Under the pieces are notes generated by a model. The model made no database searches, was not told the DNA's origin, and saw only the letters and a program-made list of their open reading frames with translations. A DNA stretch of 63,370 nucleotides, the filler included, from a bacterium (GTDB lineage Bacteria; JACRDZ01; JAQUKH01): NCBI GenBank assembly GCA_028719205.1. It is 5 parts of 4 records of this genome, joined end to end, with 100 filler letters (N's around TTAATTAATTAA, not from the genome) between each part and the next. Parts side by side here need not be neighbours in the genome. Positions count along the whole stretch, not along the records: positions 5,638 to 18,472 come from JAQUKH010000004.1; 4 more parts are not named here. One strand, given 5' to 3'. Made by a program: the position numbers and the translations under genes. This document shows positions 5,538 through 62,042 of this stretch, in pieces (position 1 is the first letter of the stretch; each line of letters opens with the position of its first letter).

Positions 5538-5637
5538 NNNNNNNNNNNNNNNNNNNNNNNNNNNNNNNNNNNNNNNNNNNNTTAATTAATTAANNNNNNN
5601 NNNNNNNNNNNNNNNNNNNNNNNNNNNNNNNNNNNNN
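5538..5637. other. Artificial contig spacer
   Basis: 44 N + TTAATTAATTAA (stops in all six frames) + 44 N. Confidence 0.98.
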
Positions 5638-6069
5638 TTTCCCTGACGGTTTTATTTTCTCCATAATGTGTTTCAGCTGCCCGGCAATATATTCCACAAA
5701 GAAAATACCAAAAGCGCAGGAAACAGCGTCAAAATGCTCTTTCGGGAATTCAAGCGCCTGCATATCCATTTCAAGGAATTGAACATTATTCACCCCTGCC
5801 TTATCAGCTTTAGCCTTTGCCTGTGAAAGCATGCCTTCCGAAAAATCAATACCGATTACTTTGCCCTTTGGCAGATGTTTGGAAATAGCAAGAGCCATAT
5901 GCCCTGTTCCCGTTGCCACATCAAGCACATGTTCCTTACCCTTAAATTTAAAACACTCCGCCATGTAACAGGCGCTTTTAGAGAAAAATCTTAAAGCATC
6001 ATTCTCATACCCGTCCGCGACCATATCAAACGTTTTCTTTAAAATTTCCTTGCGTTCTTTCGCATCCAT
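5638..6069 (-). CDS. Class I SAM-dependent methyltransferase (UbiE-like), 3' truncated
   Basis: VLDVATGTG, GIDFSEGML, FDAVSCAFGIFF. Confidence 0.85.
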
Positions 6070-6091
6070 AATATCCTATCCTTTCTATTTT

Positions 6092-6472
6092 TCATAAACA
6101 AATCCCAGAAAACCTATATCCGATCCAAACGGCAGCCAACCCAATAAATACCTGAGCAACAATATTAATACCAGCCGTAAAAATTTTCCCGTTATTTAAT
6201 AAAAGGAATGTTTCATAACCAAAAGAGGAGAATGTCGTAAATCCGCCAAGAATTCCGACAAACAAAAAAAGCCTTGTCTCGGGAGTAAATCCCTGGCGCA
6301 AATTAACAATACCGCCAAGAAATCCAATTACTAAACATCCCAAAATATTTACAGTAAGCGTTCCATAAGGAAATTCAGGGTTATTCAGCAATCGTGAAAC
6401 CCAGTTCCCTAAAAGATACCGGAACACCGAGCCTATAAAACCGCCTAATCCTACAATTAAAATTTTAATCAT
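6092..6472 (-). CDS. crcB: Fluoride efflux channel FluC/CrcB
   Basis: GLGGFIGSVFRY, FPYGTLTVNILG, GILGGFTTFSSF. Start placed at MIKILIV. Confidence 0.95.
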   Translation of the reverse strand: MIKILIVGLGGFIGSVFRYLLGNWVSRLLNNPEFPYGTLTVNILGCLVIGFLGGIVNLRQGFTPETRLFLFVGILGGFTTFSSFGYETFLLLNNGKIFTAGINIVAQVFIGLAAVWIGYRFSGICL

Positions 6473-6631
6473 ATTCATTATTCGCTTTTTGTTAACTATT
6501 GAAAAATATTCTATAACTATTTTGTTTATTTGTCGATGGAAATATTGAAGACCGAAATACTTTTTCAAATTACCTATTCGTAATTAAGTTAGCACGTTGA
6601 GTCAGAAATTTTATAAACATCATAATAAATC

Positions 6632-6686
6632 TTGACATAATATTTCATATAATTTATACTTAATATGTAAGCAAACGTTTACTTAC
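6632..6686 (+). promoter_or_regulatory. Promoter TTGACA-N17-TATACT with overlapping palindromic TetR operator
   Basis: TTGACA 6632-6637, TATACT 6655-6660, near-perfect palindrome GTAAGCAAACGTTTACTTAC 6667-6686 at the predicted start site. Confidence 0.75.
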
Positions 6687-6697
6687 TTTAAAAACAT

Positions 6698-7291
6698 ATG
6701 AAATCAAGAAAATACTCAACAAGACAGCGTGAAATAGCGGAATGCGCGCGGAGAATCATTGTAACTAAAGGTATTGAACGGCTGACTATAAGGGAAATAG
6801 CGAAGGACCTTAATTTAACCGATGGGGCTTTATACAGGCATTTTAAAAGCAAGAACGAAATAATTGGCTTATTAATAGAAGATATTGAAAACACCCTGCT
6901 AAATACGATCGAAAAAGCGGCTAAAAAAGCGAATAATCCTCTAGTTAAATTAATGAATATTTTTTTGTCGCATATTTCCTATGCCGAACAAAGGAAGGGT
7001 GTTACTTTCATAGTTATAAATGAAACTCTAAGTTTACAAGATAAACTTTTACGAAACAAAATGTCCGATATTATACAAAAATATCTAAAAAAAATAGAAG
7101 AGATTCTTATTGATGGGGTTTTGTCAGAAAAATTCAGAAAAAATATAGATACTGCTTCCGCAAGCATAGCTTTCTTTGGAATGGTGCAATCCCTAGTTAC
7201 AATATGGGCTTTAAGCGGTTACAAATATTCGTTAAGGGAAAAACATATTCAAAATTGTTTTGAAATATATAAAAAAGGAATAGTATCATAA
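6698..7291 (+). CDS. TetR/AcrR family transcriptional regulator
   Basis: N-terminal HTH LTIREIAKDLNLTDGALYRHFKSKNEI. Confidence 0.93.
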   Translation: MKSRKYSTRQREIAECARRIIVTKGIERLTIREIAKDLNLTDGALYRHFKSKNEIIGLLIEDIENTLLNTIEKAAKKANNPLVKLMNIFLSHISYAEQRKGVTFIVINETLSLQDKLLRNKMSDIIQKYLKKIEEILIDGVLSEKFRKNIDTASASIAFFGMVQSLVTIWALSGYKYSLREKHIQNCFEIYKKGIVS

Positions 7292-7300
7292 GGGGTTTAA

Positions 7301-8989
7301 ATGATTGAAGGATTCGCATCCACTTTTGGAAAAATATCCAGCATACATACAAATGTGTTATTTTTACTCGGATTGATCTTATTCGCAGGGGCAATGGGGG
7401 GAAAGATATTCCAAAAACTGAAGATACCTCAGGTTGTCGGATATATTATTGCCGGTATTATATTTGGGCGGTCAGGATTAAATATTATTAACAAGGATAT
7501 AATCGAAGCATTAATACCCTTTAATTATTTTGCTTTAGGATTGATTGGCTTTATGATCGGCGGAGAGCTTAAAAAAGAAGTGTTTCAGCGGTATGGCAAA
7601 CAGCTTATCATTATATTGTTAGCGGAAGGACTTGCCGCTTTTTTTATTGTTTTTCTTCTTGTAGGATTATTGGGGAGCTTAGTTCTTGGCGGGGGTGTTT
7701 ATTATTGGGCTCTTGGTTTATTGTTAGGAGCAATTGCTTCTGCGACAGCGCCCGCGGCAACTACCGATGTGCTTTGGGAATATAAGACGAAAGGCCCGTT
7801 AACTACAACAGTTTTAGGCATAGTGGCATTGGATGATGGATTGGCCCTGCTTTTATTCGCGTTCGCATCCAGTATTGCCCCTAGTATGCTTGGTGTCCAT
7901 TCTTCATTGTTATCGGCAATAGGCAAGCCTATTTATGAAATTGGGTTAGGTATTTTAGTTGGAGTAATATTTGGTTTTATGCTTATTAAAATACTTAGAA
8001 AATACGCTGAAAAAGAAAAAATACTGGTTTTTTCTTTGTGCAGTATACTTTTTGCTCTGGGAGTAGCTTTAATAATGGAAATAGATATGCTTTTAGCAGC
8101 GATGACTATGGGTATTGTGTTAGTGAATTATGAATCACGGTTAAGCAAAGAAGTGTTTAACTTAACGTTTGGATTCGCGACACCCTTTTATATATTATTC
8201 TTTTTTCTTGTGGGAGCAAAATTTGATTTGCAGGTAACGTCCTTGAGTGTAATATTTATCGCGATACTTTATGTTTTAGGCAGGACTTTCGGTAAAATGG
8301 CAGGCGCTTATTTAGGGGCAAAATATTCAGGTGCCCCAGTAACCGTTATGAAATATCTTCCTTATTGTCTTTTCAGCCAGGCAGGAGTCGCTATCGGATT
8401 ATCAATATTAGCATCTCAGATTTTTCCGGGGCAAATAGGAAATTCTATAATTGTTATCGTAACGCTTACCACGTTTATAGTACAGATCATTGGCCCTCCA
8501 TGCGTGAAATATGCCGTTGTTAAAGCTCAGGAGGCCGGTTTAAATATAACAGAGGATGATGTGCTTCGAAAAACTACAATAGGCCAAATTATAGATAAAG
8601 ATCCACCATGTGTAAATGACAATATTCAATTAAAAGATATTCTAAAAATATTTAGCAACAGCAAATATCATAATTATCCTGTTGTAGATGCTGAAAAAAG
8701 ATTAAAAGGAGTTATAACGTTTGAGAGTATAAGGCAATCATATGCTCATGCTGAAGCCGGGAATATTATTCTCGCTCATGATATTATGGAACCGGTAATA
8801 ACCAGAAAAATATCAATCAATTCTTCTCTATTGGAAGCCGGGGAAATTATGAATAAATATGGCATTGATTATTTATCTATTGTCGATGAAAGGTCAGTAC
8901 TTTTGGGTTTCGTTGAAAAAAGAGTAATAGAAAGTTTTGTTTCTATTAAATTGATCGAAATTGAACAGAAAATAGCTTCAATGGCTTGA
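7301..8989 (+). CDS. Cation:proton antiporter with C-terminal CBS pair
   Basis: Multiple TMs with KIPQVVGYIIAG, ATAPAAT, ALDD and QAGVAIGL; CBS motifs YPVVD..LKGVIT and AHDIM. Confidence 0.9.
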   Translation: MIEGFASTFGKISSIHTNVLFLLGLILFAGAMGGKIFQKLKIPQVVGYIIAGIIFGRSGLNIINKDIIEALIPFNYFALGLIGFMIGGELKKEVFQRYGKQLIIILLAEGLAAFFIVFLLVGLLGSLVLGGGVYYWALGLLLGAIASATAPAATTDVLWEYKTKGPLTTTVLGIVALDDGLALLLFAFASSIAPSMLGVHSSLLSAIGKPIYEIGLGILVGVIFGFMLIKILRKYAEKEKILVFSLCSILFALGVALIMEIDMLLAAMTMGIVLVNYESRLSKEVFNLTFGFATPFYILFFFLVGAKFDLQVTSLSVIFIAILYVLGRTFGKMAGAYLGAKYSGAPVTVMKYLPYCLFSQAGVAIGLSILASQIFPGQIGNSIIVIVTLTTFIVQIIGPPCVKYAVVKAQEAGLNITEDDVLRKTTIGQIIDKDPPCVNDNIQLKDILKIFSNSKYHNYPVVDAEKRLKGVITFESIRQSYAHAEAGNIILAHDIMEPVITRKISINSSLLEAGEIMNKYGIDYLSIVDERSVLLGFVEKRVIESFVSIKLIEIEQKIASMA

Positions 8990-9084
8990 TTTTTAAGATA
9001 ATTGTTGTGATTTAATAAAAAATATTAATGGAAAAATGTAAAAGGTCGATAAATCTGATAAAATATAAAATTAAATAAAGTATT

Positions 9085-9145
9085 TGCAAGGGTTCAGAAA
9101 TAGATAATATTTCTGGAGGTTTTTGACTGGTCGGGCCGCCACTCA
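9085..9145 (+). ncRNA. Candidate monovalent-cation riboswitch aptamer (nhaA-I/Li+-I/Na+-like)
   Basis: GGGTT, hairpin CAGAAATA/TATTTCTG, then CTGGTCGGGCCGCC. The 3' end overlaps a terminator stem in the leader of a membrane protein gene. Family assignment is from my recollection of the consensus. Confidence 0.5.
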
Positions 9146-9177
9146 GCATTAATTTAATGCTGTATGGCGGCTTTTTT
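9135..9177 (+). terminator. Intrinsic terminator (possible riboswitch expression platform)
   Basis: GCCGCCA..CAGCATTA/TAATGCTG..TGGCGGC followed by TTTTTT, 40 nt upstream of ATG 9217. Confidence 0.8.
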
Positions 9178-9216
9178 ATTTTATATTAACTTTGAAAAAT
9201 TGAAAGGGGTAATTCT

Positions 9217-9558
9217 ATGGAAAATAAAGAAAATAACACTCCATCTACCGGTATTGGCATGTTGATCAGGATTTACTGGATGGTATTTGGTAATTTTATA
9301 AATATACTTATTGCTATTAATATTGTTGTAAAAAAGCATAATTCCATTATGCTTTTAAGTATATTTTATTTTATGAATATCATTGGCCTTATCATTTCAA
9401 GATATATAGATATTAAATATTTAAACGGCCAGACAACCGAATATGAACCCGCGACAATGAATCACTGGAAAAACTATTTAATTAAAACAACAGGAATTTA
9501 TCTGGGCTTATGGATAATTGTGTATTTTATGAAGGATTATGCATTCTTAAAAATATGA
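9217..9558 (+). CDS. Small 3-TM membrane protein of unknown function (copy 1)
   Basis: AAGGGG RBS; hydrophobic segments; motifs RIYWMVFG and RYIDIKYLNG.T.EYE.ATM.HW. Confidence 0.8.
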   Translation: MENKENNTPSTGIGMLIRIYWMVFGNFINILIAINIVVKKHNSIMLLSIFYFMNIIGLIISRYIDIKYLNGQTTEYEPATMNHWKNYLIKTTGIYLGLWIIVYFMKDYAFLKI

Positions 9559-9719
9559 TCTAATAAATAAACCATTAATTATGTAACAGCCATTTTCATA
9601 AAGGAATAATTTGAATATTTTAAAATGCCAAAAAAAATATCAGAAAGTATCGTGAATTATAGGGTGTAAGGCGACTTTATTATTTTATATCAATTTTAAA
9701 AAATTGAAAGGGGTAATTT

Positions 9720-10061
9720 ATGGGAAACAAACAAAATAATTCTACAGGTATTGGAATGTTGATTAGGTTTTACTGGATGGCATTTGGTAATTTTATTAAT
9801 ATGCTTTTAATTATTAATATTACTTTTAAAAAACAAAGTCCAATTATGCTATTAAGTATATTATACTTTATAAATACCATAGGCCTTATCATTTTACGGT
9901 ATATAGATATTAAATATTTAAATGGTTTAACATCAGAATATGAACATGCAACAATGGATCACTGGAAAATTTATTCGATTAAAGTTATAGTATTTTACCT
10001 GGTTTTATGGATAGTTGCATATCTTATGAAAGATTATACATTCCTATATGCAAAATCTTAA
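9720..10061 (+). CDS. Small 3-TM membrane protein of unknown function (copy 2, tandem paralog)
   Basis: Colinear and highly similar to 9217-9558, including the upstream RBS region. Confidence 0.8.
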   Translation: MGNKQNNSTGIGMLIRFYWMAFGNFINMLLIINITFKKQSPIMLLSILYFINTIGLIILRYIDIKYLNGLTSEYEHATMDHWKIYSIKVIVFYLVLWIVAYLMKDYTFLYAKS

Positions 10062-10143
10062 TAAATAATCCAAGAAAAAATGATTCCGAAATTCACGTGG
10101 AGAGATAAGCTTAATGCTGAAATTATTACGTTAAAATCTATTA

Positions 10144-10779
10144 CTATTTTCTTTTTTGTAATGTCTTTAGGATATCATCGTCAGTCAATAATCCTTGCTT
10201 TTCTGCAAAAGGCGATACACTTTCTCTTAATTGTCCGAATTTCTTAAGAGCTAAATTATGAATTATTGTTTCCAATTTTTTTACTTTTCCCAGCAAGTCC
10301 TTATCATCCCTGAATGAAATTTCTATTTTATACCCCTCTTCTTCAATGTTTGAGGGCAAGATTAGATCAAAACCTTCTCTTTTTAAAATATTTTTTTTCT
10401 CTTCCAGTTCCTTTTTAAAGGCCGACACTTGCGGATAGCGTTTTTCACGCAATCGGGAAATTAAAAATGTGCCTCGATCTGCTTCCTTTAAATTTTTCCC
10501 GATAATTTCTTTTTCTATTCCGGGAAGAAATTCATTTAAGGAAATATTATCCCGCTCTTTAATATCAACAGCCAATTTAATTAATTCCTGCTGTTTATTA
10601 ACTCCAAAATAGTATTTAATAATGGCCGCAAGCAAATACTCGCTTTCCTCAATCGGCAATTCCGCCAGCACCAAAACCGTCTTTAAGGATATTTCATCTC
10701 TTTCTAAACTGTTTATTATGGCCTCGGGCAAATTTTTCAGGCGGGGATATTTGGTTAAAATGGTTTCATTTATTATCAT
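10144..10779 (-). CDS. Hypothetical protein resembling the C-terminal half of ParB-like proteins
   Basis: Helical HTH-like N-terminal part and RLREKRYP...LILPSNIEE..YKIEISF; no ParB N-terminal domain. Confidence 0.45.
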   Translation of the reverse strand: MIINETILTKYPRLKNLPEAIINSLERDEISLKTVLVLAELPIEESEYLLAAIIKYYFGVNKQQELIKLAVDIKERDNISLNEFLPGIEKEIIGKNLKEADRGTFLISRLREKRYPQVSAFKKELEEKKNILKREGFDLILPSNIEEEGYKIEISFRDDKDLLGKVKKLETIIHNLALKKFGQLRESVSPFAEKQGLLTDDDILKTLQKRK

Positions 10780-10876
10780 AATATTATTATATTTTTTTAA
10801 TTGTGTATATCATAACAAAAATGAGGTAAAATAGAAATATATTTGATTTTGAGGTTGCTATGTGAGGAGAACCCTA

Positions 10877-12082
10877 ATGGATCAAGATAAAAAGTTTTTT
10901 GGATTTGGGAAAAATGTATTTGTATCCGGGGTTGTAAGTTTTTTTATGGATGTCAGCTCCGAGATGATATATCCCCTCGTCCCGCTGTTCCTCGCTAACA
11001 CACTCGGCGTAAATAAATCGGTGATCGGGCTCATCGAAGGTATTGCCGAATCAACCGCGAGCATCCTCAAGGTATTTTCCGGATGGTTATCAGATAAAAT
11101 AGGGACCCGGAAATGGCTTATGGTCGCGGGATACGGGATATCAACTCTCAGCAGGCCTGTTATGGCCCTCGCGTCAGGCTGGCACCAAGTGCTGGGAGCA
11201 AGGTTTATCGACCGTTTCGGCAAGGGTGTCCGCACCGCGCCAAGAGACGCGATCATTGTTGAATCATCCGATAAAAAATATTTCGGAAGGGCGTTTGGTT
11301 TTCAGCGCTCGCTCGATACAATGGGCGCGGCCACCGGCCCAATGCTTGCCTTTTTTCTCCTTGGAATTTTTTCAAATAACTATAGAATCATTTTCTGGTT
11401 CTCTATAATACCCGGTACTATCGCGATACTTCTGATAATATTTTTTATTACTGAAAAGAAAAAAATAATTATCCCGCATTCCGAAAGGATTAAAATTACA
11501 TTCGCGCATTTTGACTGGAGGTTCAAATTTTTTGTCCTTATCGCTACTCTATTCGCGCTTGGCAATTCAAGCGATGTATTTCTGATACTCAGGGCGCAGC
11601 AGACAGGAATTTCAACTGTCATGATCCCTATAGTTTATCTTTTGTTCAATATTATATACTCTATTTCATCCATCCCGGCGGGAATCGCCGCGGACAGGTT
11701 TGGAAAAAAGAGAGTTATTCTTCTTGCTTTTGTGTTATTCACAGTACTTTATTATGGATTCGCGGTTGCGAAAACCACATCCGATATCTGGATATTATTC
11801 GCTTTCTACGGGCTTTTCATGGGGATGACGGAGGGCATACAGAAGGCATTTCTCGCAACCATAATACCTCCTGATTTCAAGGCAACGGCGTTTGGCGTAT
11901 ACAATACCACCGTCGGGATCGCGATGCTGCCGGCAAGCCTTGCCGGCGGATGGTTATGGGACCATATCTCACCTTCAGCAACATTTTACTTCGGTGCAAT
12001 AACAGCGGGTTTGTCAACGGTATTATTCACAGTATTTATTTTTCTTATAAGAAAACATGATAGAACGCAAAAAAATATTTAA
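10877..12082 (+). CDS. MFS transporter
   Basis: About 12 TMs; FMDVSSEMIYP, GWLSDKIG.RK, DRFGKGVRTAPRDA, ADRFGKK. GAGGAG RBS before ATG 10877. Confidence 0.92.
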   Translation: MDQDKKFFGFGKNVFVSGVVSFFMDVSSEMIYPLVPLFLANTLGVNKSVIGLIEGIAESTASILKVFSGWLSDKIGTRKWLMVAGYGISTLSRPVMALASGWHQVLGARFIDRFGKGVRTAPRDAIIVESSDKKYFGRAFGFQRSLDTMGAATGPMLAFFLLGIFSNNYRIIFWFSIIPGTIAILLIIFFITEKKKIIIPHSERIKITFAHFDWRFKFFVLIATLFALGNSSDVFLILRAQQTGISTVMIPIVYLLFNIIYSISSIPAGIAADRFGKKRVILLAFVLFTVLYYGFAVAKTTSDIWILFAFYGLFMGMTEGIQKAFLATIIPPDFKATAFGVYNTTVGIAMLPASLAGGWLWDHISPSATFYFGAITAGLSTVLFTVFIFLIRKHDRTQKNI

Positions 12083-43780: not shown

Positions 43781-44893
43781 CCGGATGTATCTGAGAAAGA
43801 AATAACAAAAGTTGTGGAAGTCCTGCGTTCAGGTTGGTGGACGACAGGGCCTGTGGTAACTGAATTTGAAAACAAGGCAATTGAATATCTCAGGGATTCA
43901 GAAGATCTGTATGCCGTGGGGGTAAATTCATGCACATCAGGATTGTACCTTGCCTTAATCGCGTCGGGAATAGTCCCGCAAGACGAGGTTATAATTCCTA
44001 CATGGACATTCGCGGCGACCGCCCAGGTTGTTGAATGGATTGGGGCTATCCCGGTTCTTTGCGACATAGAAGAAGATTCATTAAACATAGATTTAAGCAA
44101 GGCGGAAAAGCTTATTACCTCCAGGACCAAGGCGATTATCCCCGTTCATATGGCAGGATACCCCTGCGACTTGGATGGCTTAAGGAATTTAGCCCGGAAA
44201 TATAACCTTAAAGTTATTGAAGATGCCGCGCACGCCTTCGGGACAAAATATTATCAACGTAAAATCGGTAACTTTTCCGATTTATGCGTATTTAGTTTTT
44301 ACGCCACAAAAACCCTTGCTACAGGCGAAGGCGGGATGGTTGTTTCCCGCGATAAGCAGCTTATAGAAAAAATCAGGCAGAAGAGCTATTTTGGGATAAA
44401 CAAAGAAGCCTTTAAGAGGTATGGCGCAACCGGCGCCTGGTTTTATGACATAGAGGAGTTGGGATATAAGTGTAATTTTGACAGCATCCACGCGGCGTTA
44501 GGTTTGGCGCAGTTAGAAAGACTGGATCAGATGGTAGCCATAAGAAGGCAGATAGCAAAACGCTATAGGGATGGGCTTTCCGGATTAGTTGATTTTACCG
44601 CGGATTCAGACAGGCATTTCCATCCATACCATTTGTTTATCATAAAGCTAAAATCTCCCGCGATAACCCGTAATGATTTGATTATTGAACTCAAGAAGAG
44701 GAATATAGGTTCCAGCGTGCATTTTATACCATTGCATATGCACAGTTACTACAAAAAAAGGTTCCCGGAAAACAATTTTCCGGTAGCTAATAAAACTTTT
44801 TCTAATGTCTTATCGATTCCTATGTTTTCTGCGATGACGATTGAAGATGCCGATTATGTAATAGATCAGCTCAAAATAATATTGGGAGGATAA
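43781..44893 (+). CDS. DegT/DnrJ/EryC1/StrS sugar aminotransferase, 5' truncated
   Basis: SGWWTTGP, NSCTSGL, IEDAAHAFG, FSFYATKTLATGEGG. Confidence 0.93.
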   Translation, partial: PDVSEKEITKVVEVLRSGWWTTGPVVTEFENKAIEYLRDSEDLYAVGVNSCTSGLYLALIASGIVPQDEVIIPTWTFAATAQVVEWIGAIPVLCDIEEDSLNIDLSKAEKLITSRTKAIIPVHMAGYPCDLDGLRNLARKYNLKVIEDAAHAFGTKYYQRKIGNFSDLCVFSFYATKTLATGEGGMVVSRDKQLIEKIRQKSYFGINKEAFKRYGATGAWFYDIEELGYKCNFDSIHAALGLAQLERLDQMVAIRRQIAKRYRDGLSGLVDFTADSDRHFHPYHLFIIKLKSPAITRNDLIIELKKRNIGSSVHFIPLHMHSYYKKRFPENNFPVANKTFSNVLSIPMFSAMTIEDADYVIDQLKIILGG

Positions 44894-44895
44894 AT

Positions 44896-46206
44896 ATGGA
44901 ACGGTTTGAGGAGAGGTTACTGGGAGCAAAAAGAGTTTCAGTTTGGGGTGTAGGGTATTTAGGCTATACGAAACTTTTGAGGCTTCAGTCTAGGGGATTT
45001 AGCGCCTTTGTATTTGATTTTACCAACATCGGGCTCAAGGAAAAGCTAAGGAAAAGTGAATATCCGAGTAAGGAACAGGTTTATAGTTGGTCAATACATG
45101 GGAATGCGCTTGCGCTTGATTATTCCAAGATAAGATTATTGGAAAAGCCCTCTGGAATGTTTGATAATAACATCCATATACTTGCTTTTCCGGCTATTGA
45201 TAGAGAAGATCATAATTATCTTAAGCAGATGGCAAGAATCTTTATTAAAAATAAAAAGAGGCTGGAAGGTTCGCTTGTGATTTTTCAATCAGCGGGTATG
45301 CCTGGAATGTGTGACAGGGACTTCATCTTACCGCTTAAGAAAAGCGGGTGCCGTTGTAATTTTGTTTGCGCCTTTCGCAGCGATTGGCATGTAGAAGAAT
45401 TTTTGAAGCCGGAAAGGCAAAGGGTTATTGCCGCGGACTCCAAAGATTCTCTGGGCAAGGCCTCTTTCTTTTATAACGCGCTGGGTTCTAAAATTAAGGC
45501 GCTGCCTACCATAAAGATAGCCGAGCTTTATGAGAACGCCAAGAATGCTTTACAGTATGTCAACACCATGTTTATTAACCAGCTTGCGTTCGCGTACGCG
45601 GATACCAATATACGACAGATGATAAAGTACCTTTTAGAGGATGTAGAGCTTAACAAATCGCGCCTAAGCGTGGGGGCGGGAGGCTGTAAAATCCCTCTTT
45701 CAGTTGAAAATATCCTGCAGGGAAGCAAAAGCCCGCGCTTTCTTTCTTTGATAAAAGAATCCCAAGACTCTAATATGAGCATGATTTTTATGTATGCCGA
45801 AAAGATTAAGCAGATAGGGTGTAAGTCTGTTACCCTTATGGGGATTTCGGTCCGCGGAAACCAAAAGGATACTGATTTATCACCCTCGGTAGTAATCGCC
45901 GAGTATCTGAATAACCTGGGGATTAAAGTTTATATAGATGACCCTCTTTACGACAAAGCCGCAATAACCAGACTGCTTCCTGCCTGCAAAAGAGTTGATA
46001 TCTTGAAAGATGGCTTAAAGAGCGAGGCATTGTTACTCATGACTGACCACGATAAATATAAGTACTTCTCTCAGCAGGATATCAATTCCCTCGGCATACG
46101 GGATGCGCGTATTATTATTGACAATGTGGGTATTTTTAAGGATTTTTCATTTTCCAGCCGGACGAAGTACCATCTGGTTGGAGATGGGAGTTTAGGGAGT
46201 TTTTAA
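44896..46206 (+). CDS. Divergent nucleotide-sugar dehydrogenase family protein
   Basis: WGVGYLG Rossmann motif; MGISVRGNQKD...SPS; TDH..Y, IIDN. Catalytic motifs are altered. Confidence 0.7.
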   Translation: MERFEERLLGAKRVSVWGVGYLGYTKLLRLQSRGFSAFVFDFTNIGLKEKLRKSEYPSKEQVYSWSIHGNALALDYSKIRLLEKPSGMFDNNIHILAFPAIDREDHNYLKQMARIFIKNKKRLEGSLVIFQSAGMPGMCDRDFILPLKKSGCRCNFVCAFRSDWHVEEFLKPERQRVIAADSKDSLGKASFFYNALGSKIKALPTIKIAELYENAKNALQYVNTMFINQLAFAYADTNIRQMIKYLLEDVELNKSRLSVGAGGCKIPLSVENILQGSKSPRFLSLIKESQDSNMSMIFMYAEKIKQIGCKSVTLMGISVRGNQKDTDLSPSVVIAEYLNNLGIKVYIDDPLYDKAAITRLLPACKRVDILKDGLKSEALLLMTDHDKYKYFSQQDINSLGIRDARIIIDNVGIFKDFSFSSRTKYHLVGDGSLGSF

Positions 46207-46208
46207 AT

Positions 46209-47885
46209 ATGTGCGGAATTGCCGGTATAATAACCAGTAATAAGCAGAGGGAGACTAAGAAAACAGTCTCTGAGATGCTTAGCACTGTTTCTTACCGCGG
46301 CCCTAACCAAAGCGGAATCAAGAAATTCGGTGAGGTTACTCTCGGGATGGCGCGCTTAAGCATTATTGACCATCATAAGCATGTAATCCCGTATGAAGAT
46401 AATTCCTCGGGTTGCGCCATTGTCTATAACGGCGAGATTTATAACCACTCTTCAATCAGGTCGGAGCTGTCTTCTCATTATAAATTCAATACTTCTTCAG
46501 ATGCGGAGACCGCCCTGTATAATTATATAGAAAAAGGCGAAAGATCATTCGGTGACTATAACGGTATGTATGCCTTTGCTGTTTATGACCCCCGCACAAA
46601 AACTACATACGTGGTAAGAGACAAGGCGGGAGAAAAACCGCTTTATTATACTTACGGAAAAGACTTTTTTGCTTTCGCCAGTGAAATGAAGTGCCTCTTA
46701 AAATTCGTAAAGCTGCAATTTAACAAAGACGCCATTTCGTACAAGGCATATGAGTTTACTGTCGGCAAGGAGACTCTTTTTAAAGACATATATTCCCTTG
46801 GCCCGGGTGAATTTATAAAGATAAAAGATGGAAAATTCACTATCCATGAATATTGGAAGGTCTGGGATAACCTGATAGAAATAAAAGACGATGAAAAGAA
46901 GATTGTCCGGGATTTGGCGGAACTTGTTGAAGACGCGATAATGCTTCGCACAAAGAACTGTGTCCATAAATATGGATGTTTTATCAGCGGCGGGGTAGAC
47001 AGCTCTTTAATCGCCTGTATCGCCAAACCGGATTTTATTTATACCGCCCACTATGACTACGCTGATTTTGATGAGCTGCAATATGCCAGGCTTGTCGCTA
47101 AAAAGATTAAGCGCGAGCTGGTAATTGTAAAGCCCAACAAGGAAGATTTTCTGCGCACAAGAGAAAAAATAGCTTTTCATCTGGATTCTCCCTGCACCTG
47201 GACGAGTTTCTCTCTCTGGATGCTCTTGGAGCGCGCATGCAAGGATTTAAAGGTCGTGCTCTCGGGGGAAGGCGCCGATGAGATATTTTCTGGGTACCAC
47301 CGATATCATTTGCTTTATCATGATGAACAGATCCACGGTTTGGAAGCAATGCGCAACTATAAATACCTTATTGACAGGTATTATGGCAGCCCTGTTGAGC
47401 GTTATGTAAAATTAATCAACCGTTGCGAAAATCAGTATGATGAGACAGTGCGGCGGTATCTTATGGATTCGGTGCATCAATTCTTTGAGAAAATCGAAGG
47501 AGACGTTGTGCATTCAATGGGGCTTAATGATTTTTATACTACTATGCAGGTTCTTTTGCAGATGGCGGATAGGCTTTGTATGGCATTCAGCATAGAGAAC
47601 CGCTCTCCTTACCTGGATTACAGGCTTATTCAATATGGTTTTTCCATGCCTTCAAAGTATAAAATCAACCATGGGATTACCAAATGGGTATTAAAAGAAG
47701 TGGCAAAGAAATATATACCTAAAGAAATAATTCAGCGGATAGACAAAAGGGGTTTTTCTGCCCCCGTGAACAGGTGGTTTGAGTGGGATAAACAGGGAAA
47801 GTATGACCGCACTGCCTATCGGAATCTGGTCCTGCAAGACTGGAAAAATGTGTTTGGCGTAAATGGGGATGGCGCATATGTTTGA
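46209..47885 (+). CDS. asnB: Asparagine synthase-like amidotransferase (copy 1)
   Basis: MCGIAG, RGP, RLSIID, YNGEIYN, SGGVDSS, SGEGADE.F.GY, ENRSPYLD. Confidence 0.9.
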   Translation: MCGIAGIITSNKQRETKKTVSEMLSTVSYRGPNQSGIKKFGEVTLGMARLSIIDHHKHVIPYEDNSSGCAIVYNGEIYNHSSIRSELSSHYKFNTSSDAETALYNYIEKGERSFGDYNGMYAFAVYDPRTKTTYVVRDKAGEKPLYYTYGKDFFAFASEMKCLLKFVKLQFNKDAISYKAYEFTVGKETLFKDIYSLGPGEFIKIKDGKFTIHEYWKVWDNLIEIKDDEKKIVRDLAELVEDAIMLRTKNCVHKYGCFISGGVDSSLIACIAKPDFIYTAHYDYADFDELQYARLVAKKIKRELVIVKPNKEDFLRTREKIAFHLDSPCTWTSFSLWMLLERACKDLKVVLSGEGADEIFSGYHRYHLLYHDEQIHGLEAMRNYKYLIDRYYGSPVERYVKLINRCENQYDETVRRYLMDSVHQFFEKIEGDVVHSMGLNDFYTTMQVLLQMADRLCMAFSIENRSPYLDYRLIQYGFSMPSKYKINHGITKWVLKEVAKKYIPKEIIQRIDKRGFSAPVNRWFEWDKQGKYDRTAYRNLVLQDWKNVFGVNGDGAYV

Positions 47886-48507
47886 TTTTCTGGCGTTGAT
47901 TACGGCAAAGCGTTATTGGTATTTCCATAGCTTCATTATTAAGATTATCCTGTTGATATATGGTATACGCGTTGGTAATAATTTTTATATAGAAGGAGTG
48001 CCTCGTCTTAAAATCCGCGGCAGGGCGGCTGATATTCAAATAGGAAACAATGTAAGGATCTTTGGCGGTATAGACATACGTAACAGGGAGAGCGGAGGTA
48101 TTATTTTCGAGGACAATGTCTCTATAGATAATGACTGCCGTTTTGTCGCAGCTAATAAAGCAATATTAAAGATAGGCGAGGGAACTTCTATCGGTCCATT
48201 CTGTGTTCTTAACTGTGGGGTGAGCGTAACGATTGGTAAAAACTGTTTGATTTCTGGCATGGTTTATATACAGTCTTCGCAACATGGCATTGCAGATGGC
48301 GAGCTTATCAAGAATCAAAAACATACTTATGGTGAAATTATTATCGGAAATGATGTATGGATAGCTGCTAATGCTTCTGTTTTAAAAGGAGCTATTCTTA
48401 AGGATGGCTGTGTCGTAGGGGCAAAAGCCCTTGTTAGAGAAGGCCGCTACGAAAAAAATTCAATTCTTGCCGGTATTCCTGCTACAAAGAAAAAGGAGAG
48501 GATTTAA
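47878..48507 (+). CDS. Hexapeptide-repeat acyltransferase
   Basis: IGNNVRI, IGEGTSIG, IGNDVWIAAN, GCVVGA, AGIPA. Confidence 0.9.
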   Translation: MFDFLALITAKRYWYFHSFIIKIILLIYGIRVGNNFYIEGVPRLKIRGRAADIQIGNNVRIFGGIDIRNRESGGIIFEDNVSIDNDCRFVAANKAILKIGEGTSIGPFCVLNCGVSVTIGKNCLISGMVYIQSSQHGIADGELIKNQKHTYGEIIIGNDVWIAANASVLKGAILKDGCVVGAKALVREGRYEKNSILAGIPATKKKERI

Positions 48508-49626
48508 ATGGAATATTGTAAACGTTGTGTTCAACCTGATACTAGACCGGGCATTATTTTAAATTATGAGGGAGTATGCAGCGCTTGTGTAGGGCATGAG
48601 GAGAAAACGAAAAGAATAGACTGGAAAGCGCGCAGGCGAGAACTTGAATTAATATTAAATAAATTTAAAGCAAAAGGGGATACCGGCTACGATTGCATTA
48701 TACCTGTTAGCGGCGGTAAAGACAGCACTTATCAGGTTTACATGATGACGCAAGTATTCAAAATGCGCCCGCTCGCCGTAACATACAGATATGCCGATAG
48801 AACGCCCTTGGGCCAAAAAAATCTCGACAACTTGAGAAAATTAGGAGTAGATCATATTGATATAGCGCCAAAACCTGAAGTAGAAAGAAAATTTATCAGA
48901 AAAGCATTTATTGAAGCTGGGGATCCATGTTTGCCCGACCACCTCGGGATTTTTTCCGTCACCCTAAGGACCGCGGTCAATTATAAGATTCCGTTAATTA
49001 TGTGGGGTGAAAATCCGCAGCTTGAATACGGCGGTAAAGACGAAGAACGCAACAATCCATATCTGGACAGAAAATGGCTTTCTTCACATGGCTGCCTCCA
49101 AGGTAAATTAGCCGAAGATTGGGTGGATAAGGATTTAAGCCTGAAAGACCTTTTTATATACACAATACCTTCTGACGAGGAATTAGCCAGCGCTAGAATA
49201 CAATCTATTTTCTTAGGATATTATTTGCAATGGGATCCTCTTCAAAATTACGAAATAGCCAAAAAGGTGGGGTTTGAAGAATCTCCCGATGGGCCAAAGA
49301 TGGGGCTTTATGACTTTGCGGACCTGGATTCAACAAATATAATTATACATCACTATATTAAATTGCATAAGTTTGGCATTACCCGATTACATGACAATAT
49401 CAGCGTTGAAATCCGCAGCGGTAGGATGACTAGGGAAGAAGGCGTTGAGATTTTAAAATCAAAAGAAGAGCGGGTGCCAACATATGAAATTCAACAATTC
49501 TGCGATTACCTGAACATAAAAGAATCCGAATTCTGGGAACAATTAGAAAAATTCAGAAATAAAGATATCTGGAAGAAGGACACCGATAGCAATTGGTATA
49601 TGCCTAATTATTTAAAAGGACTATAA
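48508..49626 (+). CDS. N-acetyl sugar amidotransferase (WbuX/PseA-like)
   Basis: CKRC..PDTRPGI...GVCSAC, YDCIIPVSGGKDS, WGEN...EYGG, IRSGRMTREE. Confidence 0.9.
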   Translation: MEYCKRCVQPDTRPGIILNYEGVCSACVGHEEKTKRIDWKARRRELELILNKFKAKGDTGYDCIIPVSGGKDSTYQVYMMTQVFKMRPLAVTYRYADRTPLGQKNLDNLRKLGVDHIDIAPKPEVERKFIRKAFIEAGDPCLPDHLGIFSVTLRTAVNYKIPLIMWGENPQLEYGGKDEERNNPYLDRKWLSSHGCLQGKLAEDWVDKDLSLKDLFIYTIPSDEELASARIQSIFLGYYLQWDPLQNYEIAKKVGFEESPDGPKMGLYDFADLDSTNIIIHHYIKLHKFGITRLHDNISVEIRSGRMTREEGVEILKSKEERVPTYEIQQFCDYLNIKESEFWEQLEKFRNKDIWKKDTDSNWYMPNYLKGL

Positions 49627-49627
49627 A

Positions 49628-49972
49628 ATGAAAACGAAATTTAGAAATAAGCCAAGAATATTTATGGTTAAAGGTACAAAACTGAAAGATTTCGGTAAAA
49701 TTTATTTGGATAACAACGAAATGATAAGCTTTATTACTAAGAGCGGACGGGAATGCGACTTTATGGCTAAAAATTGGGGATATTATCTTAGTCCTTCACT
49801 TAATAGCAGATTAAAAAAGCAAGGATTTAAAGCAGCTCTTGTCGTTAATGAAACTAACCAAATATATGTAAATGTGGTCGAAAAGAATAAAATTTCCGAA
49901 TTTAAAAAATATTTAAATACTCATCAGGCCAGTAAAATTATTTGCTGGTTAGATGAATGGTTTAAGGATTAA
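49628..49972 (+). CDS. Hypothetical protein in the glycan locus
   Basis: 114-aa ORF tightly packed in the operon; KNWGYY..PSLN.RL. Confidence 0.7.
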   Translation: MKTKFRNKPRIFMVKGTKLKDFGKIYLDNNEMISFITKSGRECDFMAKNWGYYLSPSLNSRLKKQGFKAALVVNETNQIYVNVVEKNKISEFKKYLNTHQASKIICWLDEWFKD

Positions 49973-49973
49973 C

Positions 49974-51863
49974 ATGTGCGGAATAGCAGGCTTTATTGGG
50001 ACAACGAAACCAAATTTTAGCACAGATGCGGTTATCCAGGATATGACAAACAGTCTTATTCATAGAGGCCCTGATGATTCCGGGCGTATTAATTTGTCTT
50101 ATGGCGATCGGCAAGAGCAGGGTCACATTGTATTCGGGCACAGAAGGTTAAAAATTATTGATTTAAGTGAAGGCGGCCATCAGCCAATGTTTAACAAGGC
50201 CAAAACACTATGCATTACTTACAACGGGGAGATTTATAATTACTTAGAGCTTAAGAATGAATTAACAAAAATGGGATGTATATTTACCTCCTCTAGCGAT
50301 ACAGAGGTTGTCCTAACTGCTTACCAAATTTGGGGCACAGATTGTTTTAAAAAATTCAATGGAATGTGGGCAATGGCTATTTTCGATAAAAATAAAAGGA
50401 AATTAATAATATCCAGAGACCGTTTTGGTAAAAAACCGCTCTATTTTTATAAAACAGCGACAGATTTTATCTTTGCTTCAGAAATAAAAGCGCTGTTAAA
50501 ACATCCGTCTGTCAAAAAAGCGCCAAACTATGAAAAGATTTTTAGATATCTTGCGTATCATTATCGGTACGGAGATATAGATGAAACTTCATTTTTCGAG
50601 AATATTTATCAGGTGCCTAAAAGTAGCTACATTGAATTAGATGAATTTTTAAATACAAAAACCACTCAATACTGGGGGCTAAATCCTGGATTTATTCAAA
50701 CTGAATTATCGGATAATGATGCTATTGAAAAATTCAGAGAAATATTTATCGATTCTGTAAGATTGCGCCTGAGAAGTGACGTACCGGTTGGGTGCATGCT
50801 AAGCGGAGGCATGGATTCTACTTCCATAACATGCGTTGCATATAAAATTCTTAAAAAACCAATTATAACTTTTTCCGGAATAACAGGAGACGTAAAAGGC
50901 ATTTATGATGAAAGTGAATACATTGATAGCGTCATAAAAGAAACTCGCGCAAATTATCACTACATAAAACCAGATCCCGCAGATCTTTTTGATACGGTTA
51001 ATGAATTGCTTAAGTTCCACGATGAACCGGTCTGTACTGTCACCTGGAACAATCTCTACCTAATAGCAAAAAAAGTTAAGCTTGAACATACGCCAGTCAT
51101 ATTAAACGGCCATGCAGGCGATGAGTTGCTTGCCGGATATTGGGATCATTATCACTATAACTTTTATGATCTTTTTGAAGAAGGGAACATAGACAGCCTG
51201 TTTTATGAGATAGAGATGTGGAAAAAGAACCATTCACGGAAACCTGATGAGATAGGGCGCGCCATAAGATTTATCGCCTCAATGAAAAAAGACAGAAAAC
51301 TGGAGATGGAAAAGTTTCCGGAATATTTACGCCTATTTAACAATGATATAGCAAAAAAATTTAAGAAAAGCATAACGCTAAATTCTGAATTTTCCGGAGA
51401 ACTGCCTAGAAGGCTTAGCATCGAATTAATGCAAGACGGAGTGCCCACTACATTAAGGCCGGAAGATCGAAATACCATGTCCCAATCCATTGAATCACGT
51501 TCGCCATTTTTAGATTACCGCCTTGTTGAATTTTGTTTTTCGCTTCCAAACAAATTTAAAATAAGGGATGGCATTGGGAAATGGGTACTTCGTCAAGCCA
51601 TGAAAAACATACTGCCTGAAAATGTGAGAACCAGGAAAGATAAAGCCGGATTTATTGCGCCTGCCGACATTTGGTTCAGGACCATAAACAAAGACCAAAT
51701 TTATACCTTGATAAATTCTGATTCTTTTAAATCAAGAAATTTATTTAATATAAAAGAGATGAATAATATGTTTGATGAACACATGAATGGTACTAAAAAT
51801 CATCAAATGATCTTGTGGCAAGTCATCAATCTTGAGTTATGGTTCAGGAGATTCTTTGAATGA
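49974..51863 (+). CDS. asnB: Asparagine synthase-like amidotransferase (copy 2)
   Basis: MCGIAG, HRGPD, HRRLKIIDLS..GHQPM, LSGGMDS, ESRSPFLDYR. Confidence 0.92.
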   Translation: MCGIAGFIGTTKPNFSTDAVIQDMTNSLIHRGPDDSGRINLSYGDRQEQGHIVFGHRRLKIIDLSEGGHQPMFNKAKTLCITYNGEIYNYLELKNELTKMGCIFTSSSDTEVVLTAYQIWGTDCFKKFNGMWAMAIFDKNKRKLIISRDRFGKKPLYFYKTATDFIFASEIKALLKHPSVKKAPNYEKIFRYLAYHYRYGDIDETSFFENIYQVPKSSYIELDEFLNTKTTQYWGLNPGFIQTELSDNDAIEKFREIFIDSVRLRLRSDVPVGCMLSGGMDSTSITCVAYKILKKPIITFSGITGDVKGIYDESEYIDSVIKETRANYHYIKPDPADLFDTVNELLKFHDEPVCTVTWNNLYLIAKKVKLEHTPVILNGHAGDELLAGYWDHYHYNFYDLFEEGNIDSLFYEIEMWKKNHSRKPDEIGRAIRFIASMKKDRKLEMEKFPEYLRLFNNDIAKKFKKSITLNSEFSGELPRRLSIELMQDGVPTTLRPEDRNTMSQSIESRSPFLDYRLVEFCFSLPNKFKIRDGIGKWVLRQAMKNILPENVRTRKDKAGFIAPADIWFRTINKDQIYTLINSDSFKSRNLFNIKEMNNMFDEHMNGTKNHQMILWQVINLELWFRRFFE

Positions 51864-52933
51864 AAAAAAATAAAGTTTACATTATTGCAGAAATAGGGAT
51901 AAACCATAACGACAAATTAGAGAACTGCTACAAAATGATAGATGTTGCATCAGACTCAGGCTGCGACGCGGTAAAGCTTCAATTTTTCAAAGCAAAAAAT
52001 TTATATCCAAAAAGCGCTGGCAGGCTGAACTGGAAAGATCAAAATAAGCATTATTCCTACGATATCTATAAAGCGGTAGAGAAATTCGAACTTCCTGAAA
52101 ATTGGATAGGCAAAATTATAAAATATTGTTCAGCAAGAGATATTGATCTTATTTCGTCTGTTTTTGATATAGAGAGCGCGCGAACGCTGAAAAAAAACGG
52201 ATTTAAAAAAATAAAAATATCTTCCTATACCCTGACAAACATTCCATTAATTGAGTATTGCGCCAAAACAGGCCAACACCTTATTTTATCTACAGGAGGA
52301 GCAACCCTTTCCGAAATAGACGAAGCAGTCCAAGCGATTACAAAATATCATAAAAATTTCTCTATTTTGCATTGTTCCATACAATACCCTGTAGCGCTTA
52401 AAGATTGCAATTTGGGAATCATAGAAACCTTCAAGCTTGCGTTCCCGGAAATCGCCATAGGCTATTCAGACCATACGAAAGAAATTTCCTATGCTGCGAT
52501 TCAGACGGTATACCTGGGAGGAAAAATTATTGAAAAACATATTACTCTCGACAAGAATATGAAAGGACCGGACCATTTTTTTGCTCTTGAGCCTCAAGAA
52601 TTAAGGCAAATGGTAAAAGATGTTCGACAAGCAGAGAAAGACCGTAAAAGCGGAAATTTTATTATAAATAAACCGATCTACGGCAGTACCGCAAAATTTC
52701 CATATCCCAATGAAGAATACCTAAGGGGCTTTGCTTATATGAAACTCTTCGCGAAACGAGGTATTCACAAAGACGAAATCATACGACCTCGGGATATTTC
52801 AATATTAAGGCCTGGTGTAAATAAAAACTACGGTTTAGAGCCGAAATACCTGAAATTGTTTCAAAATTACAAAATTAAAGCAAAAAAGAATATATCTTTT
52901 GAAGATCCCATTACCTGGGATTCAATCTTATGA
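51860..52933 (+). CDS. Nonulosonic acid synthase (NeuB/PseI family) with SAF domain
   Basis: IIAEIGINHN, DAVKLQ, LSTG, LHC...YP, GYSDHT, IEKHITLD..M.GPDH, RPG. Confidence 0.92.
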   Translation: MKKNKVYIIAEIGINHNDKLENCYKMIDVASDSGCDAVKLQFFKAKNLYPKSAGRLNWKDQNKHYSYDIYKAVEKFELPENWIGKIIKYCSARDIDLISSVFDIESARTLKKNGFKKIKISSYTLTNIPLIEYCAKTGQHLILSTGGATLSEIDEAVQAITKYHKNFSILHCSIQYPVALKDCNLGIIETFKLAFPEIAIGYSDHTKEISYAAIQTVYLGGKIIEKHITLDKNMKGPDHFFALEPQELRQMVKDVRQAEKDRKSGNFIINKPIYGSTAKFPYPNEEYLRGFAYMKLFAKRGIHKDEIIRPRDISILRPGVNKNYGLEPKYLKLFQNYKIKAKKNISFEDPITWDSIL

Positions 52934-55345: not shown

Positions 55346-55357
55346 GTAAGGAGGCAA

Positions 55358-58869: not shown

Positions 58870-58870
58870 A

Positions 58871-62030: not shown

Positions 62031-62042
62031 TCCATTAGAAAG

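Follow-up and report, generated by a model that had tools for sequence, protein, structure and literature searches.

RNAs of the nhaA-I class are known as Li+-I riboswitches, ON switches that mostly control ribosome access 5' of nhaA (PMC9646797). Most genes linked to Li+ riboswitches encode cation transporters, and of 944 nhaA-I representatives 356 are associated with nhaA, 130 with a 'sodium/proton antiporter', 16 with otsA and 171 with genes listed as '[Hypothetical], various unknown' (PMC9646797, supplementary table I). Rare nhaA-I variants with an intrinsic terminator were described from Deltaproteobacteria only, 5' of genes whose function is unknown (White et al. 2022, PMC9646797). Ligand binding to such a variant activates transcription in vitro. 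The variant tested, which stands before a 'hypothetical' gene of D. propionicus, is activated by Na+ (dissociation constant about 1.4 mM) and weakly by Li+, and the variants were named Na+-II; their distinct set of associated genes was also the paper's argument for a ligand other than Li+ (PMC9646797). Here we analyse a leader at positions 9090–9182 (+) of a 63,370-nucleotide (nt) stretch of a bacterial genome (assembly GCA_028719205.1; "the window" is this whole stretch). Very probably this leader acts as an nhaA-I class (Li+-I/Na+-II) riboswitch that turns transcription ON and controls two tandem genes for small membrane proteins of an unnamed family.

The aptamer is recognised over its whole length. 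The Rfam family nhaA-I (RF03057) matches 9090–9144 (+) with 50.3 bits against a gathering score of 37 (E 5.6e-7, Infernal cmscan of the whole window) and spans model positions 1–55 of 55. It is the sole Rfam family at its gathering score in the 63,370 bases, and the only RF03057 match in the host's genome. A permissive Rfam scan of 6000–11000 (E<=10) returned the match again (E 4.4e-8), with all else far under the family thresholds; in the same scan RF03071 (Na+-I/DUF1646) had no match over the aptamer, and the Rfam scans list no match to nhaA-II. A preliminary description had compared GGGTT, a hairpin and a downstream core with the nhaA-I motif. All three are present, P1 being read here as nine pairs including one U-G, and the covariance search, positive for nhaA-I and negative for DUF1646 over the aptamer, bears out the comparison. 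The conserved core GGUCGGGCCGCC is intact at 9129–9140, in the P2 stem and loop, and the 5' GGGU and the AGG linker are likewise in place. Two mutants of the D. propionicus RNA, M2 (linker GG) and M3 (loop CG), lost their response (PMC9646797); the nucleotides concerned are all kept here. U9131, just 5' of the CGGGCC loop, corresponds to position 54 of the D. propionicus construct, going by the M4 template in supplement 1 of that paper. Position 54 is U in most nhaA-I RNAs and C in D. propionicus (PMC9646797).

A terminator overlaps the aptamer. The 101-nt leader folds with −38 kcal/mol (z = −6.0; as stable in 0 of 200 shuffles), and the dominant feature of this fold is a two-tier hairpin at 9133–9173 followed by a T-run. 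A terminator scan of 8800–10300 found a single site, 9159–9171 plus the T-run, where 0.4 ± 0.7 were expected. GCCGCCA (9135–9141) pairs with UGGCGGC (9165–9171), and the heptamer is indeed the 5' arm of a strong terminator about 40 nt before the open reading frame (ORF) at 9217, as had been proposed; its overlap with the aptamer is visible in the fold. Because the 5' arm of the terminator draws on nucleotides of the aptamer loop and of the 3' side of P2, the RNA can form either P2 or the terminator at a time, which implies ON logic. The architecture of a ligand-ON transcriptional switch, part of the preliminary description too, thus agrees with the published ON logic of the class (PMC9646797). 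In an alignment with a genome of the same genus (G001) leader and aptamer are conserved, with compensatory changes in the inner stem of the terminator. We are more confident still in this narrower claim than in the explanation as a whole: the RNA is, with high confidence, a genuine nhaA-I class riboswitch that acts by transcription anti-termination.

The proposed switch would work as follows. In the ligand-free state the hairpin 9133–9173 and its U-run would stop transcription some 40 nt short of the first gene. An alkali cation on the aptamer would hold P2 (9125–9131/9138–9144) and the CGGGCC loop in place. With P2 held, the terminator 5' arm would be unavailable and RNA polymerase would read into 9217–9558 and 9720–10061.

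The two regulated genes arose by tandem duplication of a unit of about 500 nt. Their products are identical at 78 of 111 positions (70%, BLASTP E 9e-53); on the DNA level 9244–9543 and 9741–10040 share 80% identity, and a direct repeat (9151–9232 versus 9655–9736, 78% identity) extends into the leader. What is left of the second leader contains no aptamer (no RF03057 at E<=10 in 9655–9719) and no stable fold (z = +0.95), and the scan of 8800–10300 found no terminator-like site between the genes. Hence, gene 2 is presumably read through under the same switch. The decayed copy within 9559–9736 also offers a natural 'riboswitch-less' control beside the intact leader. Table 1 lists the features of the locus.

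Table 1. Features of the riboswitch locus, in window coordinates (aa, amino acids; MFE, minimum free energy).
Feature	Position	Strand	Basis or remark
nhaA-I class aptamer	9090-9144	+	cmscan RF03057 and sequence
GGGU, 5' end of aptamer	9090-9093	+	sequence
P1 hairpin	9094-9102 paired with 9108-9116	+	9 pairs including one U-G; 5-nt loop
AGG linker	9117-9119	+	sequence
P2	9125-9131 paired with 9138-9144	+	6 of 7 pairs; C-C mismatch 9127/9142
Aptamer loop CGGGCC	9132-9137	+	sequence
CUGGUCGGGCCGCC	9127-9140	+	sequence
Intrinsic terminator (expression platform)	9133-9182	+	MFE fold and terminator scan
Terminator outer stem	9133-9141 paired with 9165-9173	+	MFE fold
Terminator inner stem	9144-9151 paired with 9155-9162	+	MFE fold
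T-run T6-A-T4	9172-9177, A, 9179-9182	+	sequence
Ribosome-binding site AAAGGGG	9203-9209	+	7 nt before ATG 9217; free in leader fold; conserved in G001
Regulated gene 1, 113-aa three-helix membrane protein of unnamed family	9217-9558	+	ORF; no Pfam match
Relic of duplicated leader (decayed 3' half of terminator and ribosome-binding region)	9655-9719	+	repeat alignment
Regulated gene 2, tandem 113-aa paralogue	9720-10061	+	ORF; no Pfam match
Cation/proton antiporter, 562 aa, Na_H_Exchanger and CBS; regulation by the switch not claimed	7301-8989	+	Pfam PF00999 8.3e-38, PF00571 3.3e-14
TetR-family gene 5' of antiporter	6698-7291		Pfam scan

The association of the three-helix family with the riboswitch is close to constant. 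The first genome set comprised 41 genomes, the window's own (G000) and 40 relatives. Seven carry RF03057 matches and five the three-helix family; in each of these five the riboswitch is on the strand of the family gene. It lies directly 5' of the family gene, with a terminator, in the two genomes of the window's genus and in G005, a member of the same phylum whose RNA has C at position 54. A GC-rich genome of another phylum (G026) has it directly 5' of the family gene without a terminator, and in G003 the order is riboswitch, otsA and, 2.3 kb downstream, the family gene. The family was found in 3 of 14 genomes of the phylum of G026, where the two added genomes, G086 and G087, both carry RF03057 upstream (48.4 and 50.0 bits), and in 2 of 401 sampled genomes of the phylum of G043 (G535 and G616), again with RF03057 upstream in both (52.5 and 43.6 bits). 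RF03057 thus stands upstream on the same strand in nine of nine reference genomes found with the family, which are not all independent: G000 and G001 share a genus, as do G026 and G086. The three-helix family was not found in two sets of five genomes, the first of which carries riboswitches that share the P1 sequence discussed below, in the 40 genomes of the taxonomic family of G041 or in 401 genomes of the phylum of G098. A pattern search of genome contigs with a three-sequence family alignment gave 48 pattern hits, with no relative among them.

Metagenome contigs, scanned with a seven-sequence family alignment, yielded 16 further loci at 29–44% identity. RF03057 reaches its gathering score upstream on the same strand in 10 of them and 35.1 bits in one; four have none and one (L141) is cut at its 5' side. 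Among the assessable loci the riboswitch is therefore present in 10 of 15, or in 11 of 15 if the match below the cut-off is counted. Those without it are L131 and L132, which encode the same protein, L134, and L143, itself a weak partial match. One locus (L128) is not independent because its aptamer is identical to that of G086. Since the three-helix genes are nearly always found behind an nhaA-I riboswitch, the family is a good candidate for a salt-stress gene.

The preliminary description had asked whether homologues share the leader, and they do. The P1 sequence is wholly different across 18 leaders, yet folding each sequence on its own gives a hairpin of 6–11 base pairs right after GGGU in every one; with P1 paired in 18 of 18 despite differing sequence, the leaders covary. 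A consensus fold of 16 leaders (MAFFT alignment, RNAalifold) contained just three P2 pairs and missed P1 owing to length variation. The expression platforms vary as well. All 11 metagenome leaders, and that of G087, lack a T-run at a distance of up to 70 nt from the aptamer; in several metagenome leaders the end of P2 (CCUCC or CCAUCC) could base-pair with a GGAGG that lies further downstream, 5' of the start codon, a translational design of the Li+-I type. C at position 54 occurs in one of 20 family-linked leaders, that of G005.

Some of these loci hold other features. In L135 (984–1391) and L137 (1009–1320) an extra small ORF of 135 and 103 aa, respectively, without Pfam match, lies between riboswitch and family gene. 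At L144 (G616:C12) a fluoride riboswitch (RF01734, 2119–2163 (+), 42.3 bits versus 34) is divergent from the nhaA-I riboswitch of the family gene at a distance of about 140 nt, and a second nhaA-I match (1401–1456 (−), 31.6 bits) is under the cut-off.

In the related group the neighbourhood of the riboswitch points to osmotic stress. A riboswitch-led operon contains OtsA (GT20), OtsB, DUF5752 and TreT, and in G001 also MscS and a patatin-like protein. G005 and G003 carry the three-helix gene within this trehalose operon. In G000 and G001 the gene is preceded by a riboswitch of its own, immediately after the TetR and CPA2 antiporter genes, and the order TetR, antiporter, riboswitch and small gene is common to the window and G001. 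That an antiporter gene is the immediate upstream neighbour had been noted before, and its product has Na_H_Exchanger and CBS domains. In G003 TetR, CPA2 and a PIN-domain gene lie just 5' of the riboswitch. A search of the window's own genome (92.7% complete) with the OtsA of G001 found no otsA. Among the 16 metagenome loci, a gene for an SNF Na+ symporter follows the family gene in three (L134, L135 and L138), and an OtsB gene lies 5' of the riboswitch in L135.

Riboswitches with the same P1 also occur in other lineages. A search of genome contigs for the P1 sequence that D. propionicus has too, with either U or C at position 54, matched 105 stretches, of which the 80 loci listed, with 86 matches, are considered here; the pattern selects on P1 sequence, and the sample is biased accordingly. 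By record label 46 loci are of deltaproteobacterial/Thermodesulfobacteriota type, 19 Omnitrophota, 4 of Nitrospirota type, 2 Elusimicrobia, 2 Planctomycetes and 2 'bacterium' or 'uncultured bacterium', with one each for Clostridia, Desantisbacteria, Spirochaetes, Hydrogenedentota and 'Proteobacteria'. Position 54 is U in 81 of the 86 matches and C in 5. A T-run starts within 45 nt in 74, at 46–110 nt in 5, and is missing in 7. In this sample, terminator-type variants are evidently not confined to Deltaproteobacteria, and C54 appears as a minority state. The three-helix family is found behind one match only within these loci, at L056, which is the contig of G005.

What these RNAs precede is informative. 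For 58 of the matches a first ORF could be identified downstream, and the 44 longest were scanned against Pfam: ten are Band_7/SPFH, three MscS, three DapB-like and two Rnk, and single hits fell on NhaA, CitMHS, a GH15 trehalase-like domain, DUF5752 and a DedA-type domain. By their opening residues four more resemble an N-terminal extension of OtsA that is described below; two of these match HAMP or dCache_3 and two have no Pfam match. Judged by these domains, the gene set is one of salt and osmotic stress and is not dominated by nhaA. Since riboswitches with this P1 head osmotic-stress genes, the argument for a ligand other than Li+ is the same as that of the 2022 paper (PMC9646797).

Several features of this sample deserve mention in their own right. 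The SPFH/Band_7 (HflK-like) first ORFs (10 of 44; L024, L032, L035, L050, L072, L080, L086, L097, L099 and others) come mainly from metagenome-assembled genomes (MAGs) labelled Omnitrophota, and this association is absent from supplementary table I of PMC9646797. Tandem nhaA-I-type aptamers 100–230 nt apart, most with their own T-run, are present at L039, L042, L061, L073, L078 and L096; tandem arrangements were mentioned in 2022 without their specificities (PMC9646797). At L017 (2715–5175), L015 (3465–5803) and L016 (4211–6938), and also at L037, L053, L058 and L092, OtsA (GT20) is extended at its N-terminus by about 270 aa, a region with a membrane helix and weak HAMP/dCache matches, and a terminator-type nhaA-I riboswitch stands at the head of the gene. 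The hosts are Desantisbacteria-like relatives and, apparently, Omnitrophota. The extended OtsA may be a fusion of sensor and enzyme.

Which cation does the window's RNA sense? Na+ versus Li+ is not readable from sequence alone, but we would favour Na+. Pointers to Na+ are the terminator platform, the osmotic-stress context in relatives, the genes behind riboswitches of the same P1, and the lower P1 with its linker. The lower P1 of the window copy is U-G/C-G, where the nhaA-I consensus has G-C/C-G, and together with the linker (Y-C...G-G, then AGGUUUU) it resembles the Na+-selective RNA of D. propionicus. As U occupies the specificity-linked position, a response of the window copy to Li+ in vitro is also likely. 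Cellular Na+ is normally far above Li+. An aptamer that accepts both ions would in practice report Na+ for this reason, and on balance we think that the physiological signal is a rise in cytoplasmic Na+, that is, salt stress. Another ligand, or none, would be less likely than either Na+ or a Li+-selective switch.

The regulated protein belongs to a family that ordinary searches miss. A word-index protein search returned only the query itself, its paralogue and one protein of 84% identity, whereas an exhaustive profile search brought up 554 cluster representatives (E<=1e-3), 140 of them at E<=1e-10; the best 150 of the 554 measure 79–180 aa, most of them 105–150. An alignment of 98 sequences gives the consensus G-L-RL-WM--GN ... 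RY-DIR---G-T--GEPATM-HWRRY, in which R62 and G71 are invariant, R18, W21, G25, D65, T73, A79 and T80 reach at least 94% and N26 85%. The preliminary description had called the product of the ORF at 9217 a protein with three transmembrane segments, and an AlphaFold2 model built from the family alignment predicts three helices (12–38, 44–68 and 81–112; mean predicted local distance difference test score 88.3, predicted template modelling score 0.76). In this model helices 2 and 3 are joined by a short loop with a beta-bridge, and this loop is where conservation is highest. The N-terminal side and the helix 2–3 loop hold most of the Lys and Arg residues but also most of the Asp and Glu. Prediction of a homodimer from two copies scored 0.00 against a mark of 0.42, which counts neither for nor against oligomerisation. 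Foldseek found no match to the 113-aa model in the PDB at E<=0.001, and the nearest clusters in the ESM Atlas are all 'hypothetical protein' without a common Pfam family. Of ten family members looked up, six have a name at source, always 'hypothetical protein', and four have none. The 2017 discovery paper (PMC5737381), in its available portion, mentions no such small protein, and the literature on nhaA-I and Na+-II riboswitches, mostly at the level of abstracts, contained nothing further on the family. From its riboswitches and neighbours, the family likely has a role in alkali-cation or salt stress at the membrane. The earlier suggestion of a cation-stress protein gains support from the near-constant riboswitch link and the osmotic-stress neighbours.

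A number of observations weigh against our interpretation. P2 contains a C-C mismatch (9127/9142), and the same pair is mismatched in G001. A sigma-70 scan found no promoter-like site on the + strand between the stop of the antiporter gene at 8989 and the aptamer, so transcription of the leader may come from the antiporter gene by read-through; 5' of the aptamer the alignment of G000 and G001 contains a conserved AT-rich stretch without assignable −35/−10 boxes. C54 is the only nucleotide experimentally tied to Na+ selectivity, its C54U mutant (M4) answered Li+, Na+ and NH4+ (PMC9646797), and the window copy shares with Li+-I riboswitches a U at the equivalent position (U9131). Elsewhere, one family-linked leader in two combines the classical lower P1 (GGGUG...CAGG) with a platform of the typical Li+-I kind that sequesters the ribosome-binding site, so the family is not tied to the variant type. 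Finally, the protein family lacks described relatives: its 98 members have no Pfam or NCBIfam family in common, only single weak hits, a profile search of the PDB gave 0 hits at E<=1, and the best Z of 9.3 in VIA-align against 48,161 chains, to mixed helical bundles, is below the meaningful level for helical proteins.

Some of these points are just what one would expect if the RNA were a classical Li+-I riboswitch, selective for Li+, whose terminator platform is incidental, with the two small proteins serving lithium detoxification. Besides the U at the position-54 equivalent, the full match to the Li+-I consensus core GGUCGGGCCGCC, the standard Li+-I look and translational platforms of about half of the family-linked leaders elsewhere, and the prevalence of cation transporters among genes linked to Li+ riboswitches (PMC9646797) speak for such a switch. 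However, terminator-type variants have a distinct gene set and the one tested was Na+-selective (PMC9646797); the U54 mutant of the D. propionicus RNA was broadened and not Li+-specific (PMC9646797); and the matches that share this P1 lie mostly 5' of osmotic-stress genes, with nhaA in 1 of 44 scanned first ORFs. We therefore consider a dedicated Li+ switch unlikely, though it deserves serious attention, and continue to favour Na+.

The function of the protein is more difficult to narrow down. If a single guess has to be made, the likeliest is that the 113-aa proteins are small accessory or regulatory subunits of Na+-coupled transport or osmolyte systems, and we offer it tentatively, at somewhat less than even chances. 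We give lower odds to an exporter that works by itself. A minimal oligomeric cation channel or exporter that lowers cytoplasmic Na+ or Li+ would fit genes that are, like that of NhaA, almost always under an alkali-cation riboswitch; a conserved Gly-Asn pair (G25 97%, N26 85%) sits in the middle of helix 1, R18, R62, D65, T73 and T80 are conserved too, and CrcB/Fluc is a precedent for finding a channel through its riboswitch. But the three helices have few polar residues inside the membrane, most of the conserved positions lie in the helix 2–3 loop and at helix ends instead of lining one face of a helix, several genomes have the gene within operons for trehalose synthesis and not beside transporters, and no similarity to any transporter family is detectable. 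These features make a channel or exporter doubtful, and an accessory subunit remains our first choice. The most far-reaching version of our interpretation goes further: the three-helix family would be a new determinant of alkali-cation (Na+/Li+) tolerance, either a minimal oligomeric channel or exporter or an obligatory small subunit, and U54 terminator-type variants would be widespread outside Deltaproteobacteria and head a salt and osmotic-stress regulon. We regard this combination as improbable, slightly more so than the exporter by itself.

It is very improbable that the hairpin serves just to end the antiporter operon and that the likeness to an aptamer reflects chance or decay, without a role in sensing: the missing promoter-like site, the one mismatch in P2 and the decayed leader copy 500 nt downstream would suit this explanation, but the match (E 5.6e-7) runs across the full model with all conserved core nucleotides intact, the aptamer is kept in G001 but lost from the duplicated leader that was free to decay, it stands 5' of homologues of the gene in nine of nine genomes, at some loci without an antiporter nearby, and doubling as antiporter terminator would fit a riboswitch as well.

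The surroundings of the locus add a few observations. A gene for CrcB, the fluoride channel, lies at 6092–6568 (−), 2.5 kb 5' of the riboswitch, and no fluoride riboswitch matches in 6000–11000 at E<=10. A weak RF03071 (Na+-I) match at 10853–10915 (+), with 17.5 bits (cut-off 40.5) and E 3.2, runs into the beginning of an MFS transporter gene (10862–12082) and was treated as noise. The ORF at 5590–6069 contains an X-run from masked bases, and positions 43781–63370 of the window come from another contig than the riboswitch.

How much of this is new? The RNA class and its architecture are already published; terminator-type nhaA-I variants 5' of hypothetical genes were described in 2022 (PMC9646797). 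The window's RNA is an additional member of the class, in a host phylum without earlier report and with an unreported gene association. As far as our searches show, the riboswitch-linked three-helix family is unnamed and undescribed, and its leaders may already sit in the 'hypothetical' set of PMC9646797. The RNA alone is an ordinary, textbook-quality example. The lead worth following is the protein: one coherent membrane family that is almost always riboswitch-controlled, in several phyla and with both types of platform, makes a testable candidate for a part in Na+/Li+ stress. Terminator-type variants beyond Deltaproteobacteria that mostly have U54 also bear on how the class encodes its specificity for Na+ or Li+.

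Among known systems the Na+-II riboswitch of D. propionicus is closest. It has the same aptamer architecture, a very similar P1 and linker (GGGU-YCAGAAA...UUUCUGG-AGGUUUU), a terminator that shares its 5' arm with the loop and the 3' side of P2, ON logic, an AT-rich leader of similar length, and a downstream gene likewise of unknown function. The combination of nhaA-I-like aptamer and intrinsic terminator that marks Na+-II is present in the window copy; the C54 that also marks it is not, the loop-closing pair being C-G (C54) there and U-G (U9131) here. D. propionicus is deltaproteobacterial, whereas the window's host is not, since it belongs to the phylum of G005, a MAG labelled Candidatus Desantisbacteria. 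A stricter pattern, run over 301 genomes from a single order, matched at two loci; the one at L146 is identical to the published template, its aptamer followed by a 170-aa ORF without Pfam match. The gene behind the validated Na+-II riboswitch was considered as a member of the three-helix family and rejected (hhalign probability 0.1%).

With the Li+-I riboswitches before nhaA, such as those of Azorhizobium caulinodans and Pseudomonas monteilii, the window copy shares the Rfam model, which it matches above threshold, U54, GGGU, AGG and GGUCGGGCCGCC as well as ON logic. Typical members control ribosome access, mostly 5' of nhaA, whereas the window copy uses a terminator and precedes a gene for a small unnamed membrane protein. 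The Na+-I class (DUF1646, RF03071) has a similar two-hairpin layout, terminator-type ON switching and salt-related genes (PMC9646797), but its model has no match over the aptamer at E<=10, and the classes differ in P2 loop and lower P1 (PMC9646797).

A conceptual analogue is the fluoride riboswitch with CrcB/Fluc, in which an ion-sensing RNA singled out a small membrane protein, its function then unknown, as the probable determinant of resistance. RNA, ion and protein fold are different, and no homology is implied. If the most far-reaching version of our interpretation is true, the three-helix family would be recognisable through its nhaA-I riboswitch in much the same way as the small fluoride channel CrcB/Fluc was recognised through its own.

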